Shown here: in pieces, positions 1,740-57,347 of the stretch | Numbering within the stretch: the stretch's first letter is position 1 | Layout of the letters: each line of letters opens with the position of its first letter | Source: an uncultured Candidatus Saccharibacteria bacterium | GTDB lineage: Bacteria; Patescibacteriota; Minisyncoccia; Phycocordibacterales; Phycocordibacteraceae | DNA: 64,000 nucleotides | Reading direction: 5' to 3' | Assembly: GCA_964546795.1 (NCBI GenBank) | Contig: CAZJKG010000003.1 | Span: 22,305-86,304 of the forward strand | Translations under genes and position numbers: made by a program | Notes under the pieces: generated by a model | The model's database searches: none | Told to the model about the DNA's origin: nothing | The model's input: only the letters and a program-made list of their open reading frames with translations

Positions 1740-1878
1740 TTTTTATGGTGAGTACCATCGAACCAAAAGCAAAACGCGCAACAGCAAATCGCGTGCGCGA
1801 GTTGCCATAGGACCGGTCACAGACACCGTTCGTAGCGTTAGGAGCACTGTACAGGACGCATGAAAAAGATGCAAGAAA

Positions 1879-1910
1879 ACACACAACCACCCTTGCGGGC
1901 GGTTGTGTGT
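1879..1910 (-). terminator. Intrinsic-terminator-like hairpin in the 340-bp rpsJ-rplC spacer
   Basis: 10-bp stem ACACACAACC/GGTTGTGTGT with a 12-nt loop. On the transcribed (minus) strand it is followed by a U-rich tract (reverse complement of GAAAAAGATGCAAGAAAAC). Confidence 0.45.
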
Positions 1911-2081
1911 CGATTCAGCAGAATCGCCTATTGGGTTTCTTGGCAACCTTTTCGTTACACCATTCCCTCGACTGACTCGGGATTAGTTAAAACCATAGTC
2001 ACGCGGACGTTCCTTGGTTTTATACCATCTTTACCCCAGAACCACAACCTCGCTTCGCTCGGTTGGCTACGGGGCAGGCAT

Positions 2082-2522
2082 CTACACCATTTTAACGTCT
2101 ATAGTTACTCCAGACGGCAAATTTAAATTGGTGAGGGCCTCAACCACCTTTGGCGAGGGGTTCAGAATATCAATGAGGCGTTTATGAATGCGCATTTCGA
2201 ACTGTTCCCGTGCATCCTTATGGACGAACGTCGAGCGATTCACCGTCCAACGCTTGGTCTCGGTTGGCAACGGCACTGGGCCGACGACAACTGCGTCGAA
2301 GCGTACTGCGGTATCCATAATCTGCTTGACCGAGAGATCGAGAATCTTATGTTCGTAGGCGCGGACACGGATACGGAGCTTGTGCTCTATTGCCGGGACG
2401 GCGGGTGCAACTACTTTCTTCGCTCGCTTGGCCGCGGGAGTAGAAACGTGCGCCGCCTTTGCACTCTTGGCAGGTGCTTTTTTGGTGGCTGTTTTTTTCT
2501 TCGCTGCCGTCGCTGTTGCCAT
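2082..2522 (-). CDS. rpsJ: 30S ribosomal protein S10 with a Lys/Ala-rich N-terminal extension
   Basis: The core KLRIRVRAYEHKILD...VVGPVPLPTETKRWTVNRSTFVHKDAREQFEMRIHKRLIDI matches S10. About 45 extra N-terminal residues (MATATAAKKKTATKK...). The ORF begins 28 bp after tuf. Confidence 0.9.
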   Translation of the reverse strand: MATATAAKKKTATKKAPAKSAKAAHVSTPAAKRAKKVVAPAVPAIEHKLRIRVRAYEHKILDLSVKQIMDTAVRFDAVVVGPVPLPTETKRWTVNRSTFVHKDAREQFEMRIHKRLIDILNPSPKVVEALTNLNLPSGVTIDVKMV

Positions 2523-2550
2523 GTTGCAATATGCTTCGCTATTGCACTGC

Positions 2551-3750
<1,200 letters not shown>

Positions 3751-27439: not shown

Positions 27440-27511
27440 GCCCTCGTGGTGAAACGGATATCACAACAGTCTTCGGAACTGTAGGTCCGGGTTCGATTCC
27501 TGGCGAGGGCA
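27440..27511 (+). tRNA. tRNA-Arg (anticodon TCG)
   Basis: Cloverleaf folded by hand. Acceptor GCCCTCG/CGAGGGC, anticodon loop CTTCGGA, T-loop TTCGATT. No encoded CCA. Confidence 0.85.
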
Positions 27512-27552: not shown

Positions 27553-27623
27553 GCGGGTATGGTTCAATGGTAGAACATCTGGTTGCCAATCAGATGATGG
27601 GAGTTCGATTCTCCCTACCCGCA
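27553..27623 (+). tRNA. tRNA-Gly (anticodon GCC)
   Basis: Acceptor GCGGGTA/TACCCGC, anticodon loop TTGCCAA, T-arm GGGAG-TTCGATT-CTCCC. Confidence 0.85.
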
Positions 27624-28628: not shown

Positions 28629-28699
28629 CGGGCCGGAGTATGCCGGTAGTACACTTGCTTTGGGAGCAAGCAGACCGAGTTCAATTCTCGGCGGCCCGA
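28629..28699 (+). tRNA. tRNA-Pro (anticodon TGG)
   Basis: Acceptor CGGGCCG/CGGCCCG, anticodon loop TTTGGGA, T-arm CCGAG-TTCAATT-CTCGG. Confidence 0.8.
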
Positions 28700-29948: not shown

Positions 29949-30019
29949 GCGGGACTAGTTTAATGGTAGAACAGGAGGTTTCCAACCTCCTAGTGGGAGT
30001 TCGATTCTCCCGTCCCGCA
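29949..30019 (+). tRNA. tRNA-Gly (anticodon TCC), with CCA encoded at 30020-30022
   Basis: Acceptor GCGGGAC/GTCCCGC, anticodon loop TTTCCAA, T-arm GGGAG-TTCGATT-CTCCC. Confidence 0.85.
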
Positions 30020-34253: not shown

Positions 34254-34769
34254 TTATTTTGCATCATACATCTTTCGCGCGCGCTCATATGCGGTCTCGG
34301 CCGCTGAGCGTCCTTCAAAGTCGCCGACGACGACTTCTTTCTTCTGGATTTGCTTATAGGTCGCAAAAAAATGAGCGATTTCCTTCAACACATGCTGATT
34401 GGCATCTCCTATGTCATTCACGGAAGCATACCTCGGATCACCCACGGCGACCGCAATAATTTTCTCATCCGCTTCGCCGCCGTCGGTCATATGCATGATA
34501 CCGATGGGGCGGGCCGGAACGAGAATGCCGGGCGCAAGCGGATGCGTGGTGAACAGAACAACATCAAGAGCGTCGCCGTCATCCCAGAGCGTTTGTGGCA
34601 CAAAGCCGTAATCGAAGGGGTAGTCCTGCGCGCTATGGAGAACTCGGTCAAGTTTGATGACTCCCGTCTTCTTATCTATCTCGTACTTATTATGAGAGCC
34701 CTTTGGGATCTCGATGATGACGTTCATTTCTTCTTTCGTGCCCGGATCGATGTCATGCAATAAATTCAT
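34254..34769 (-). CDS. ppa: Inorganic pyrophosphatase
   Basis: Family I PPase motifs (DGDALDVV, EIPKGS..KYE). The start is taken at MNLLHDIDPG, which abuts the IR element. The ORF-track start at 34796 reads into the repeat. Confidence 0.9.
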   Translation of the reverse strand: MNLLHDIDPGTKEEMNVIIEIPKGSHNKYEIDKKTGVIKLDRVLHSAQDYPFDYGFVPQTLWDDGDALDVVLFTTHPLAPGILVPARPIGIMHMTDGGEADEKIIAVAVGDPRYASVNDIGDANQHVLKEIAHFFATYKQIQKKEVVVGDFEGRSAAETAYERARKMYDAK

Positions 34770-34884
34770 CCCGTTAGAAATAGAACGCAGACGCACCAGA
34801 AACGGCGCGGCCGAACCCTATCCGATTAAAACTGATAATTGAACCCGTTATCGGATGAATGACGCGTCCACGATTTCTAACGGG
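34770..34884. repeat. Start-codon-abutting inverted-repeat element, copy 2 (115 bp)
   Basis: Termini CCCGTTAGAAAT / ATTTCTAACGGG, flanked on both sides by ATTCAT (ATGAAT on the coding strand); ends exactly at the ppa ATG. Confidence 0.6.
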
Positions 34885-34905
34885 ATTCATAGTTCCGAGT
34901 ATACC

Positions 34906-51540: not shown

Positions 51541-52176
51541 ATGGACACTATTCTTCCGCTCATCGTTCTCATCCTCTCCATCATCGTGCACGAATTGGCG
51601 CACGGCTACGCCGCAAACTCTCTCGGTGACCCGACCGCCCGGTTAGCTGGCCGCCTCACCATGAACCCACTCTCTCACATCGATTTCATGGGCTCGATAG
51701 TCATCCCTGCGCTTCTCGTCTTTACCAACTCGCCTATACTCTTCGGTTGGGCGAAGCCCGTTCCCTATAACCCGTACAATCTAAGGAATCAGCGTTGGGG
51801 CGAAGCGTTTGTTGCAGTCGCCGGAAGCGCGACGAACATCCTCCTCGCACTTATTTTCGGATTCATCGTGCGTTTTGGTACTTCTATAGGGTTTGATGCA
51901 ACAGCTCTTTCGCTCGCCGCAACTATCGCGTTCATCAATCTCTTCCTCGGCCTTTTCAATCTCATTCCGTTCCCGCCGCTCGATGGTTTTACCACACTGC
52001 GCTCCGCGCTTCCGTGGCATCTTTCTTCCGGCCTACACCATCTGGAACAGCAGATCCGCAATGCGGGGGCTCTCTCGCTCATTCTGTTCCTTTTCATCTT
52101 TTCGTATCTGTTCGCGGGACCGTTTTTCAACCTCATCCTCTGGCTCTTCGGACTCATCACGGGCGGCAGTGTATAG
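51541..52176 (+). CDS. Site-2 protease family (peptidase M50) zinc metalloprotease
   Basis: HELAHG within TM1, a second LDGG-like motif (PPLDGF), multi-TM topology. Confidence 0.8.
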   Translation: MDTILPLIVLILSIIVHELAHGYAANSLGDPTARLAGRLTMNPLSHIDFMGSIVIPALLVFTNSPILFGWAKPVPYNPYNLRNQRWGEAFVAVAGSATNILLALIFGFIVRFGTSIGFDATALSLAATIAFINLFLGLFNLIPFPPLDGFTTLRSALPWHLSSGLHHLEQQIRNAGALSLILFLFIFSYLFAGPFFNLILWLFGLITGGSV

Positions 52177-52184
52177 TACGGCCT

Positions 52185-52445
52185 ATGGACTTCAATAAAA
52201 TCCCCAAGCAATTTTGTGAGAACGTCGTGGCAGGGCACTCGGGAGAGAATTTTGTCATGCTTATGAGTGTTGGTGAGACAGCGAACGCTTATGCTCTCAC
52301 GCCCCCTCATATGAAGCGTCTGGTGCAAAGTTTGTCTCATCAGGTTGCGGAATATGAGAAAAAGTTCGGCACCATACAAGCGAAATGGTCTCCAGGCATC
52401 GAGAGTCCGCTTCAATCCAAAGATATCAAGGGCAGCGGGGCATAA
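52185..52445 (+). CDS. Small hypothetical protein (86 aa), possibly DUF3467-like
   Basis: The start at MDFNKIPKQF... (ATG 52185) is chosen because the ORF-track start overlaps the upstream protease gene. Confidence 0.4.
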   Translation: MDFNKIPKQFCENVVAGHSGENFVMLMSVGETANAYALTPPHMKRLVQSLSHQVAEYEKKFGTIQAKWSPGIESPLQSKDIKGSGA

Positions 52446-52450
52446 TACGC

Positions 52451-52639
52451 TTAGAACCCATCTCAAAAATAACCGTGAGAAATAACCGGAAGCCCGCTTG
52501 GCCGCTGCGACGCGGATTTTCCGGCTCCGGCAGGTAGCGGCTCGAACTCGGCGTATCTCGATACGCCTCGTTCTCTGCCGACCCGCCTCGCTCGGAAAAT
52601 CCGCGTCTCGCCAGGCCATTATTTTTGAGATGGGTTCTA
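52451..52639. repeat. 189-bp nested palindromic element with 21-bp perfect terminal inverted repeats
   Basis: Outer IR TAGAACCCATCTCAAAAATAA / TTATTTTTGAGATGGGTTCTA. Inner IR GACGCGGATTTTCCG / CGGAAAATCCGCGTC. Central palindrome GGCGTATC-TC-GATACGCC. Lies directly upstream of the T4SS-like gene set. Confidence 0.6.
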
Positions 52640-52693
52640 GATCTTTTCAACTCCCTCCATTTTCCGCCGCGTGCGACTGCTATACTGAAGAGG

Positions 52694-53119
52694 ATGGAGT
52701 ACCAGGTACCGCAGTTCATCGAGGTTGAAGATAAGATAGTCGGACCTTTGACCTTGAGGCAGTTCATCTACGTCGCCGGCGCGGGCGGACTTTGCATTAT
52801 TTTCTTTGTGTATCTGCCAATACTTTTTGCATTTTTGCTCTCTATACCGGTGGTGGCGTTCGCTGCAGCCCTCACGTTCTATAAAATAAACGGTAAATCA
52901 TTCATCGAAATACTGGAAGCTGGCTTCAACTATTACACGGGGGCAAAATTCTTCCTCTGGAAGCATGGGGGGTCAGAAACGGAAAAGGAGCCGGGTCCCA
53001 CGAACGCGGCCGCGGCGGCCGCGGAAACCGCAGCTCTCAAAGCGCATGGCACTCCGAAACTTACGCGAGGAAAACTTTCGGAGCTTGCATGGTCGCTCGA
53101 TATCAAAACCCCTAAATAA
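52694..53119 (+). CDS. Small two-TM membrane protein, PrgI/VirB3-like
   Basis: MEYQVPQFIEVEDKIVGPLTLRQFIYVAGAGGLCIIFFVYLPILFAFLLSIPVVAFAAALTFYKING.... Position and topology resemble T4SS VirB3/PrgI. The start is uncertain (the ORF-track start lies inside the palindrome). Confidence 0.5.
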   Translation: MEYQVPQFIEVEDKIVGPLTLRQFIYVAGAGGLCIIFFVYLPILFAFLLSIPVVAFAAALTFYKINGKSFIEILEAGFNYYTGAKFFLWKHGGSETEKEPGPTNAAAAAAETAALKAHGTPKLTRGKLSELAWSLDIKTPK

Positions 53120-53758: not shown

Positions 53759-55576
53759 ATGGCACTGCTTGATTTTTTCAATCGTAAAAAAGAGGAGCCG
53801 GCGATAACATCGGTCCTGCCTGGAGACATCTACAAACAGGGTTACTTGGACCTCGTTGACACCATAGCACCGACGGCGCTCAAGATCAGTCCACGCGAGC
53901 TTGAACTCGGAGAAAAATTCGTCCGCGCTTTCTACACCATCTCCTACCCGCGTTTCCTTTCCGACAGCTGGTTCTCACCCATCATCAATCTCGACAAAGT
54001 GCTCGATATCTCTTTATTCATTCATCCGATAGAAACCGAGCAGGCGCTGCGCGGTTTCCAGAAGAAGGTTGCCGAGGTTCAGAGCCAGATCAACGAGCGC
54101 GAAGCAAAAGGGCTTGTGCGCGATCCTTTGCTCGACACCGCGTATCAGGATCTTGAGAGTTTGCGAGACAATCTGCAGCAGGCCCAAGAAAAATTGTTTG
54201 AAGTCGGTCTCTATCTTGCTCTCTACGGCGACTCCAAAGAAGAAATTGACAAAACCGAAGGCGACATCCGGGGCATCTTGGATGCCAAACTCGTCTACAC
54301 CAAACCAGCGCTCTTTCAGCAGGAGCAGGGATTTCGTTCGTGTCTTCCGCTTGGCACCGACGAACTCCTTGTCAATTCAAAACTGAACTCTTCACCGCTT
54401 TCCTCTATCTTTCCTTTTGTCTCCTTCGACCTCACAAGCGACCGCGGCATCCTCTATGGCATCAATCGCCACAATTCTTCGCTTATTCTTTTCGACCGCT
54501 TCTCGCTCGAGAACTATAATTCGGTCGTATTCGCGAAGTCCGGCTCCGGCAAAAGTTATGCGACAAAACTCGAGATATTGCGTTCCCTTATGTTCGGCAC
54601 TGACGTTATCGTCATCGACCCAGAGCGCGAGTACGAGCAGCTCGCGGAATCCACGGGCGGACGTTCATTTCATATTTCGCTCTCCTCAAAACACCATATC
54701 AATCCGTTCGATCTCCCTCCGGTCAAAGAAGACGAGGATCCGAAGGACATCTTGCGCTCCAACATCATTGCGCTCGTCGGACTCTTTCGCATCATGCTCT
54801 CCGGCCTCTCGCCCGAGGAAGACGCCATTGTTGACCGCGCTATCAGCGAAACGTATGCGCTCAAAGACATCACTGGTGATGTCGATTTCACGAACGCAGA
54901 GCCGCCGCTGCTGTCCGATTTCGAACAGGTACTCTCCGGCATGCAGGGGAGTGAGTCCTTGGTTGAACGTCTCTCCAAATACACCCGCGGGACCTGGGCG
55001 GGATTCCTGAACCAGCCGACCAATATCGATCTCAAACAGCAGTTCGTAGTGTTCTCAGTGCGTGATATGGAGGATGAATTAAAACCGGTGGCGATGTACA
55101 TCATCACGCACTATATCTGGAACGCGGTGCGCCATGACCTGAAGAAACGACTGCTTGTGATCGACGAGGCATGGTGGATGATGAAGAGCGAGGACACCGC
55201 TTCTTTCCTCTATTCCGTTGCGAAGCGCGGACGCAAATACTATCTGGGCGTCTGCACCATCACGCAGGACGTCGAGGATTTCTTGAAGAGTCCGTACGGG
55301 CGACCGATCCTCACCAACTCTTCTCTGCAACTGCTGTTGAAACAGTCGCCGACGACCATTGATGTACTGCAACAAACCTTCAATCTCACCGATGAAGAGA
55401 AATATCTCTTGCTTGAAGCCGGGGTGGGCGAGGGGCTTTTCTTCGCGGGATTAAAGCATGTCGCCATCAAGATTGTTGCGAGCTATACCGAAGACCAAAT
55501 AATAACTTCTGATCCCTCGCAGCTCCTTGCGATAAAGGAGGAGAAGGAGCGTCATGCCATTACGCAAAAACAATAG
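53759..55576 (+). CDS. VirB4/TraC-like conjugation ATPase, C-terminal ATPase domain
   Basis: Walker A FAKSGSGKSYATK, Walker B LLVIDEAWWMM. The start is 2 nt after the stop of the N-terminal-domain ORF, in a different frame. Confidence 0.85.
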   Translation: MALLDFFNRKKEEPAITSVLPGDIYKQGYLDLVDTIAPTALKISPRELELGEKFVRAFYTISYPRFLSDSWFSPIINLDKVLDISLFIHPIETEQALRGFQKKVAEVQSQINEREAKGLVRDPLLDTAYQDLESLRDNLQQAQEKLFEVGLYLALYGDSKEEIDKTEGDIRGILDAKLVYTKPALFQQEQGFRSCLPLGTDELLVNSKLNSSPLSSIFPFVSFDLTSDRGILYGINRHNSSLILFDRFSLENYNSVVFAKSGSGKSYATKLEILRSLMFGTDVIVIDPEREYEQLAESTGGRSFHISLSSKHHINPFDLPPVKEDEDPKDILRSNIIALVGLFRIMLSGLSPEEDAIVDRAISETYALKDITGDVDFTNAEPPLLSDFEQVLSGMQGSESLVERLSKYTRGTWAGFLNQPTNIDLKQQFVVFSVRDMEDELKPVAMYIITHYIWNAVRHDLKKRLLVIDEAWWMMKSEDTASFLYSVAKRGRKYYLGVCTITQDVEDFLKSPYGRPILTNSSLQLLLKQSPTTIDVLQQTFNLTDEEKYLLLEAGVGEGLFFAGLKHVAIKIVASYTEDQIITSDPSQLLAIKEEKERHAITQKQ

Positions 55577-56268: not shown

Positions 56269-57282
56269 ATGGTTCCGCGCACTTTAGGATTCTTCCTGAT
56301 GATGTTTTTTGGTACGGTGCTCATGCTTCCGCTATCATCATCGGCACAATCTTTCGAAGATCTGGGGGATACGAGCGGCAACGCCTTTACGCTCTCAGCG
56401 CGTCCGCAATATCCGGCACCCTATAGCCAAGCGACACTCTCCCTTCTCTCGAGCTCTCTTGACCTCACAAACGCGACAATGACCGTCTCGCTCGCCGGCA
56501 AGGAAATATATAAAGGTGCAGTGCAACCAGTCGCCATCTCGCTTGGCAAGGCGGGAAGCGTTGCAAACGTGAACGTGACGCTTTCCGTAAATGGACTGAG
56601 TTACAGCCAAACACTCGTCATACAGCCCCAAGATGTCGTACTGGTCGCCGAACCCATCTCTTCGGCTCCGCCCTTGTACCTCGGCAAGCCATCGGTTCCG
56701 CTTGAAGGAAGCGTGCGGGTCGTTGCAATGGCGAATCTGAAGGATGCTGGCGGTAAAGCACTTAATCCAAATCTGCTCTCTTACGCGTGGACGGTCGACG
56801 ATACCCAGATAGCGAACGCCTCCGGTATCGGCAAACAGGCGATTATGGTCGCTTCACCGCTTCAGTACCGCGAACGATCGGTCTCGGTCACCGTTCAGAG
56901 CCAAAACGGGAGTTTGGTCGGCGGCGCATCACTCTCACTCACCGCCCAAGAACCTTCGGTGCGCATGTATAAAAACGACCCATTGCTTGGTATCCGTTAC
57001 GACCATGCTCTCTCCGACTCCTATGCCATTGCGGGTTCAGAAACAACGTTCTACGCAGCACCGTTTTCCCTACCAACGAGCGGCGGCGTGCCGCTCATTC
57101 AGTGGTTCTTGGACGGCGCAGCAGCACAGACGGGAAATTCCATAACACTGCGACCCGCCGGTAGCGGACAGGGGAATTCTTCGCTTTCCCTCGTCGCTTC
57201 TGCAGGCAACTCTGCGACAGCAAGCATGAATCTCTTACTTTCTTTTGGGACGCAATCGGGCTTTAACTTCTTCGGCTTATGA
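56269..57282 (+). CDS. Secreted hypothetical protein
   Basis: Signal peptide MVPRTLGFFLMMFFGTVLMLPLSSSAQS. Ser/Thr-rich. Confidence 0.5.
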   Translation: MVPRTLGFFLMMFFGTVLMLPLSSSAQSFEDLGDTSGNAFTLSARPQYPAPYSQATLSLLSSSLDLTNATMTVSLAGKEIYKGAVQPVAISLGKAGSVANVNVTLSVNGLSYSQTLVIQPQDVVLVAEPISSAPPLYLGKPSVPLEGSVRVVAMANLKDAGGKALNPNLLSYAWTVDDTQIANASGIGKQAIMVASPLQYRERSVSVTVQSQNGSLVGGASLSLTAQEPSVRMYKNDPLLGIRYDHALSDSYAIAGSETTFYAAPFSLPTSGGVPLIQWFLDGAAAQTGNSITLRPAGSGQGNSSLSLVASAGNSATASMNLLLSFGTQSGFNFFGL

Positions 57283-57284
57283 GT

Positions 57285-57347
57285 CCCGTTAGAGACAAAA
57301 CATTGAAAATGTTTACCGACTTATGGACAAGTCGGGTCTCTAATAGG
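57285..57347. repeat. Start-codon-abutting inverted-repeat element, copy 4 (short, 63 bp)
   Basis: Termini CCCGTTAGAGAC / GTCTCTAATAGG (10/12 complementary). The left end overlaps the upstream stop as ATGA. The right end abuts the ATG of the pilin-like gene. The interior holds two small hairpins. Confidence 0.5.

Follow-up and report, generated by a model that had tools for sequence, protein, structure and literature searches.

A nested palindrome ahead of the PrgI gene in a Saccharibacteria genome: a probable MITE of IS5-family lineage, recently inserted at a TA dinucleotide

What is a long, nested palindrome doing directly in front of the first gene of a type IV secretion system (T4SS)-like cluster? 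A preliminary description of this DNA offered three answers: an oriT-like or other DNA-processing site for the adjacent machinery, a MITE, or an operator or large structured RNA controlling the locus. We addressed the question within the window, by which we mean the whole 64,000-nucleotide stretch analysed, and by comparison with orthologous loci, representative genomes and metagenomes.

The palindrome and its surroundings

The window is a CPR/Patescibacteria-like chromosome segment in which the palindrome separates a DUF3467 gene from a PrgI-family gene. The features are as follows, with the support for each in brackets.

51541-52176, + strand: M50 peptidase gene, upstream of the element
52185-52445, + strand: DUF3467 gene, 86 aa, upstream flank outside the element (orthologs found)
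52452-52639, no strand: the complete element, proposed MITE, 188 bp with both TA copies, net insertion 186 bp (missing from orthologous loci L039-L048)
52452-52453, no strand: left TA target duplicate (empty-site alignment; single TA in L043; Y-TA...TA-R flank logo)
52452-52472, + strand: left terminal inverted repeat, TAGAACCCATCTCAAAAATAA (repeat finder; 19-22 nt identity to IS5-family ends)
52461-52488, + strand: subterminal direct repeat, TCTCAAAAATAACCG / CGTGAGAAATAACCG (repeat finder, D1)
52509-52523, + strand: left arm of the inner 15-nt inverted repeat, GACGCGGATTTTCCG (repeat finder; perfect)
52544-52573, no strand: central hairpin with core GGCGTATC-TC-GATACGCC (repeat finder, folding, consensus structure)
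52593-52607, + strand: right arm of the inner 15-nt inverted repeat, CGGAAAATCCGCGTC (repeat finder, consensus structure)
52619-52639, - strand: right terminal inverted repeat (repeat finder; 21-mer scan)
52638-52639, no strand: right TA target duplicate (empty-site alignment and flank logo)
52678-52686, + strand: TGcTATACT, an extended -10-like motif and putative promoter element outside the proposed MITE (invariant columns in alignment A1)
52694-53119, + strand: PrgI-family gene, 141 aa, first gene of the T4SS-like cluster, outside the element (Pfam PF12666)
53759-55576: VirB4/TraG-like ATPase gene, downstream of the PrgI-family gene
57279-58031: T4SS pilin gene, further downstream, followed by yidC, dnaA and dnaN
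60706-62091: dnaA
62203-63303: dnaN

The positions of dnaA and dnaN show that the end of the window lies near a replication origin. Four tRNA genes on the + strand (27440-27511, 27553-27623, 28629-28699 and 29949-30019) were the sole Rfam matches in the window at the gathering score.

The outer arms of the palindrome are 21 nt long and 100% complementary, both on reading the sequence and by the repeat finder. Within the window the 21-mer was found at these two places only, with three mismatches allowed; two matches were obtained in none of 100 shuffles. A blastn search together with a terminal-repeat scan allowing five mismatches revealed no further copy of the element in the 64 kb. The preliminary description of a 189-bp palindrome with perfect 21-bp termini was correct in the perfection of the arms and in their nesting, but it placed the left arm one nucleotide too far to the left, and the element measures 188 bp. 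The 15-bp inner inverted repeat and the central palindrome with 8-bp arms that it reported were both recovered by the repeat finder. The central palindrome extends imperfectly over 52544-52557 / 52560-52573 (86%), while the subterminal direct repeat sits in a bulge of the left arm, residues 52473-52502 being unpaired in the consensus structure.

At 188 bp the element is short and without coding capacity. The ORFs that overlap it are mechanical only and the segment is missing from orthologs, so that the region was rightly called non-coding. Its left end follows the DUF3467 stop codon by 6 nt. The start of the first T4SS-like gene, previously placed in or just after the right arm, was located imprecisely: the PrgI ATG at 52694 lies 55 nt past the arm, and the TTG at 52625 begins nothing but a mechanical ORF. 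This ATG is conserved in all orthologs of alignment A1, and a 141-aa PrgI homolog is 97% identical over 100% coverage.

Both strands of the element were predicted to fold into one long hairpin, at -101.9 kcal/mol (z -8.7) for the + strand and -114 kcal/mol (z -10.4) for the - strand; in each case none of 200 shuffles folded as well. So strong a nested fold, near a promoter region, would suit an operator or structured regulatory RNA peculiar to this locus, evolved in place to control the T4SS-like operon. However, no Rfam model matched positions 52350-52750 even at E <= 10, nor was the element matched in the whole-window scan at the gathering score. Scans for promoters and terminators gave no significant signal in or at the element: no terminator was called there, and the single promoter-like site, on the - strand, compares with an expectation of 0.5.

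Orthologous loci and the target site

Comparison with orthologous VirB4-type loci had been proposed as a check, and we carried it out. Five distinct DUF3467-PrgI loci (10 contigs, L039-L048) encode PrgI proteins 80-97% identical to that of the window, and all five lack the element. Gene order is retained (M50 - DUF3467 - PrgI - TraC-like - VirB4), with a DUF3467-PrgI spacer of 56-71 nt as opposed to 248 nt in the window. In the closest relative the spacer is 62 nt, and the difference of 186 nt equals the element minus one TA. The same net figure of 186 bp was given by blastn, in which the alignment is interrupted from window position 52450 to 52643 where the corresponding gap in L039 is 6 nt, the surrounding DNA being 93-95% identical.

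The preliminary description had noted no obvious target duplication. The duplication is indeed hard to see, but it exists as the outermost pair of the inverted repeat: TA is self-complementary and merges into the repeat, and it was therefore invisible to a reader of the single sequence. In alignment A1 the window reads ACG-CT[TA GAACCC...GGGTTC TA]GAT-CTTTTC; among relatives, L039 reads ACG-CCCGAAG-CTTTTC and L043 reads ACG-CATAGAA-CTTTTC, with a TA at the exact spot. Thus TA stands at both ends of the element in the window as against once in L043. A flank logo of 95 elements, among the matches listed for the terminus, placed a pyrimidine at position -1 in 78 and a purine at position +1 in 78, within AT-rich flanks. 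This pattern is that of elements inserting into YTAR and duplicating its TA.

The polymorphism between filled and empty sites indicates that the insertion is recent, since the terminal repeats are perfect and the element is absent from relatives that are approximately 93-95% identical. The pre-insertion sequence is seen only approximately; L043 reads CATAGAA at this point. Removal of the element and one TA from the window (joining 52446-52451 to 52640-52642) leaves the 7-nt spacer CTTAGAT, which differs at four of seven positions from CCCGAAG at L039:2089-2095. This mismatch could reflect spacer drift or the footprint of an earlier insertion and excision.

These comparisons bear directly on the proposal of an oriT-like or other DNA-processing site for the T4SS-like machinery, for which an inverted repeat directly upstream of PrgI, VirB4 and pilin genes is the natural argument. 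The same genes occur without the element at all five orthologous loci, those with 93-95% identical flanks included. Termini identical to those of the element are scattered among unrelated loci in many phyla, beside unrelated genes, and equal the ends of transposons (see below). Additionally, a Pfam scan of 20 neighbouring ORFs, distributed across 42172-63303, revealed no domain of relaxase type. We regard the oriT-like reading as refuted for practical purposes, and its chance of being right as very slight. The operator or structured RNA fares no better and is scarcely credible: it too would be expected at the orthologous loci, where it is not conserved, and copies are dispersed, the nearest relatives of the element (L009, L018 and L022) lying in unrelated contexts. 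The position next to T4SS-like genes is incidental.

All orthologs share an invariant CTGCTATACT, equivalent to TGcTATACT, about 7-8 nt before the PrgI ATG. In the window this motif is intact and starts 39 nt past the right end of the element, its TATACT hexamer lying 41 nt past it. The insertion thus appears to have spared both flanking genes and a probable core promoter, for which the consensus argues. If TGcTATACT is a -10 element, the mRNA of the PrgI operon would be leaderless or nearly so; alternatively, GAAGAGG (window 52678-52696 region) may serve as a ribosome-binding site on read-through transcripts.

Two further differences between these loci were observed. L045 possesses two extra genes between the TraC-like gene and the VirB4-like ATPase (L045:3581-4403, orthologous to window position ~53757), encoding a DUF5680 protein and a 23S_rRNA_IVP/bAvd-like protein, the latter of a type often linked to diversity-generating retroelements. 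Furthermore, L039 and L040 share an insertion that follows the M50 peptidase gene and precedes the start codon of DUF3467, a position at which the window is empty and has an 8-nt spacer (52177-52184). The L039 insertion (L039:1709-1824) is ~79% identical to a second MITE-like element elsewhere in the window, at 34768-34886, which is 119 bp long and ends in perfect inverted repeats of 14 nt (ATCCCGTTAGAAAT / ATTTCTAACGGGAT). The flanks of this second family, ATGG...ATGG in L039 and ATGA...ATGA in the window, suggest a 2-4-bp duplication.

Copies of the terminus and IS5-family partners

A scan of representative genomes, one per species, located the exact 21-mer TAGAACCCATCTCAAAAATAA at 36 loci, where we estimate that ~0.3 would be expected by chance. 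Half of these are in CPR genomes (Kaiser-, Magasanik-, Kerfeld-, Pacei- and Saccharibacteria); the others belong to Bacteroidota, Ignavibacteria, Desulfobacterales and further groups. Several copies may occur per genome, on four contigs in Kaiserbacteria MFLB01 and three in Magasanikbacteria LCRX01, and the 64-kb window has one copy. Outside the 21-mer the DNA is unrelated between loci; inside it falls into lineage-specific sequence groups, and the element of the window groups with L009, L018 and L022 (Kaiserbacteria, Parcubacteria), its nearest relatives in sequence. Most loci have a second, inverted terminus 38-318 bp away. One match differs from the others: in Paenibacillus sp. Root444D2 (L011:2849-2869) the exact 21-mer is contained in a long ORF on the - strand (1839-3248), lacks an inverted partner in its vicinity and may be a chance match or a remnant. 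The search for further copies of the terminus, also proposed beforehand, thus revealed dispersal over unrelated sites in many genomes, with duplications.

A metagenome scan for the 19-mer returned more than 120 loci, a lower bound. With both scans pooled, the 97 paired elements among the matches listed were bimodal in length, with a short class of 38-318 bp whose mode is 146 bp and a long class made up of five elements of 843-891 bp. Viral contigs gave no match to the 21-mer, and only two contained the 19-mer, both with the Leptospira-type insertion sequence described next.

A blastn search of plasmids pointed to those of Leptospira weilii, in which TAGAACCCATCTCAAAAAT and its complement bound an element of ~868 bp that is annotated as an IS5 family transposase and encodes WP_085986074.1. 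Once fused across an A7G slippery site, this transposase contains the Pfam domains DUF4096 and DDE_Tnp_1 and scores 238.7 bits against NCBIfam NF033580 (transpos_IS5_3; cut-off 110). The five long metagenome elements, among the matches listed, likewise encode a two-ORF, frameshifted DUF4096 + DDE transposase with an A6-7G slippery site, 50-61% identical to that of L. weilii. Homologs, which their sources name IS5 family transposase, occur in many phyla including Saccharimonadales and also in archaea. A Saccharimonadales (CPR) genome, GCA_035946175.1, has a full copy with termini TAGAACCCATCTCAAAAtT / ATTTTTGAGATGGGTTCTA at a CTAG site beside efp. More distant members of the IS5 family have variant termini such as TAGAAGCTATCTCAAAAAT. 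From their size, two frameshifted ORFs and 2-bp duplication, these insertion sequences may belong to the IS427 group as defined by ISfinder.

The termini of the element are identical over 19-22 nt to the IS5-family ends in L038, L063, L075, L123 and L171, the shared inverted repeat being TAGAACCCATCTCAAAAAT(AA), and the TA duplication in YTAR/CTAG is likewise common to both. As in its subterminal direct repeat, an AATAAC...AATAAC arrangement is present in the L063 and L123 elements, at one end of each. The termini of the element are thus transposon ends, and they are shared across unrelated loci. The element differs from the insertion sequences in its length (188 bp as opposed to ~850-890 bp), in having no transposase gene and in its GC-rich palindromic interior. 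Past the terminal 22 nt no resemblance to them was detected, and the element is not recognisable as an internal deletion derivative. The relationship lies in the ends and the target.

Eight full-length copies (L038, L063, L075, L094, L123, L153, L171 and L172) were observed to have an identical 19-nt terminus although their transposases are 50-61% identical. This invariant terminus overlaps the last codons and stop of the transposase (...CAT/TAT TTT TGA GAT GGG TTC TA), and the opposite end is more variable, for example TAGAACCAGTCTCAAAATAA. MITEs, the element included, carry the invariant, transposase-stop-proximal version at both ends. An assignment of these to left and right insertion-sequence ends, by which the better-folding strand might have been called sense, was rejected, as both resemble the same end and the subterminal similarities are ambiguous.

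A tblastn search with the Leptospira transposase gave no match in the window or in the first 36 loci. Inspection of the ORFs beside solo matches of the terminus revealed no adjacent transposase other than contig-end fragments in L004 and L071. Thus, no transposase of the IS5-type lineage was found in the 64-kb window or beside the CPR copies inspected.

An element that is hairpin throughout, with a strand asymmetry in folding that is consistent within sub-families (see below), invites comparison with REP/BIME or IS200/IS605-type hairpins, for which a tyrosine (HUH) transposase would move the DNA in single-stranded form. REP units fall well short of the element in length, and the ends of IS200/IS605 elements are neither inverted repeats nor associated with duplications. 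The termini found here match letter for letter those of DDE (IS5-family) elements, which have a TA duplication, and the Kaiser-type copies have no G.U excess (13 as against 11). We consider mobility of the REP or IS200 type highly improbable.

Taken together, the dispersed copies, the IS5-family termini and the TA duplication in a YTAR target favour the MITE among the roles first proposed. We conclude with high confidence that the palindrome is a MITE of IS5-family lineage that recently inserted at a TA between DUF3467 and PrgI. Very probably, it is a non-coding, non-autonomous relative of the ~850-890 bp IS5-family insertion sequences. A cognate transposase supplied in trans would bind the two terminal repeats, cut the MITE out or copy it, and then insert it at YTAR.

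This kind of element is well known, while the particular family described here and its presence in CPR were not found in the literature searched. The terminal-repeat string had no match in that literature, and the one match for MITEs with CPR concerned diversity-generating retroelements. Correia repeat-enclosed elements (CREE) of Neisseria also have a TA duplication. They are not known to have a parent transposase, whereas the termini of the window MITE match full-length insertion sequences. Their sequence is unrelated and their taxa differ; the resemblance, one of kind only, would seem to lie in TA duplication, size and hairpin. They too are MITEs of 100-200 bp with ~26-nt terminal repeats, intergenic near promoters and with a processable hairpin RNA (PMC10969869). 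The same logic of ends shared with an intact insertion sequence, filled and empty sites, and hairpins of approximately -98 to -130 kcal/mol, typical of bacterial MITEs, applies to Nezha of cyanobacteria with ISNpu3 and to Chunjie, ERIC and RUP (PMC3184786). The terminal repeats and target duplications of these classic bacterial MITEs are unlike those found here. We rejected Chunjie as the identity of the window MITE, its 9-bp direct repeats (PMC3184786) marking a different family. Unlike the classic MITEs, the present family spans many phyla and combines an invariant terminus with many lineage-specific interiors.

The hairpin interior and its possible roles

With the terminal repeats removed, MITE copies among the matches listed had a median folding z of -4.0 against shuffles, and 66% fell below -3. 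We examined the pairing in the four-copy set of the window, L009, L018 and L022. The last three have different but equally complementary sequence at the 15-nt inner repeat, and across 68 pairs of the set 97.4% of cells are paired. Changes on both sides were found at 19 of the 68 pairs, compared with 6.3 +/- 1.8 in shuffles (none of 500 reaching the observed number) and 1-5 in slid controls. One-sided (G-U) intermediates were almost absent. As the copies retain pairing through double changes with almost no G-U intermediates, the sequences argue that the palindrome is maintained as Watson-Crick pairing.

Folding was also compared between strands, with sub-families oriented by sequence rather than by energy. 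Among the matches listed, the same strand folded better within each sub-family (27 of 29, 23 of 23, 4 of 4 for the window group, where it is the - strand, 3 of 3, 3 of 3 and 2 of 2), by a mean of 7-16 kcal/mol. Between the arms, G.U outnumbered A.C modestly in both large groups, at 123 to 87 and 135 to 98, and the window group showed no such excess. We rejected RNA-level selection as a claim from this count, the signal being too weak. Selection on one strand, mutation bias or a founder effect may underlie the strand bias.

The nested palindrome would accordingly be a trait of the family rather than of the locus, most members having a hairpin interior whose pairing is preserved by double changes. 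Most likely it is retained for helping the element, either by selection at the level of the element for bringing its ends together or by arm-to-arm correction of quasi-palindromes, and not for the host locus. Effects on expression would then be a by-product; one possibility is that a hairpin of approximately -100 kcal/mol in read-through RNA blocks or processes upstream transcripts.

The covariation between copies could also mean a function beyond selfish mobility. For the window, the corresponding proposal is that the MITE arrived as a transposon and has since been exapted as a cis element. In RNA reading through from the M50 peptidase and DUF3467 genes, its hairpin would cause termination or pausing or undergo RNase III-like cleavage and so insulate the PrgI/VirB4 operon, or its DNA would act as an upstream promoter element. 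The location between co-directional genes, with a stop codon 6 nt upstream and a conserved -10 hexamer 41 nt downstream, suits such a role, as do the very stable hairpin on the mRNA-sense strand, a short U-rich stretch (GAUCUUUUC) 3' of the stem and the compensatory changes among copies. A precedent exists in Correia elements, whose terminal repeats are RNase III cleavage sites and within which promoters can occur (PMC10969869). Set against this, relatives with the same operon work without the MITE, the promoter and terminator scans were not significant at it, and in the Kaiser-type sub-family it is the other strand (here the - strand) that folds better. Exaptation is compatible with the MITE explanation and adds a host-level function to it; we judge it unlikely, though far less so than the readings dismissed above. 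Conceivably the MITE acts secondarily as a barrier to transcription or as a site of processing, but the idea is unsupported.

A broader proposal, to which we give marginally less weight still, is that of a widespread, undescribed superfamily of hairpin MITEs. Its terminus of 19-21 nt would be invariant from CPR to Bacteroidota and Desulfobacterales and its interiors re-invented by lineage, selected as single-stranded (RNA or DNA) structures and not mere selfish relics. Such structures could be RNA regulators or terminators recruited repeatedly in tiny CPR genomes. Alternatively, mobilisation could be non-canonical and strand-specific and require the hairpin, the transposase possibly being one that the MITE-bearing CPR genome does not encode.

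Identification of the palindrome as a probable MITE removes a tempting wrong annotation, namely that of an oriT, operator or riboswitch of a CPR type IV secretion-like locus; the element should be masked as a mobile repeat. CPR/Patescibacteria genomes are usually thought poor in mobile DNA, yet they carry active-looking MITEs, with a second family in the same window, and at least one CPR genome also contains the parent IS5 lineage. For telling strains apart, the insertion is a handy marker. With its one invariant terminus and many interiors, the family constitutes a natural data set on why MITEs keep hairpins.
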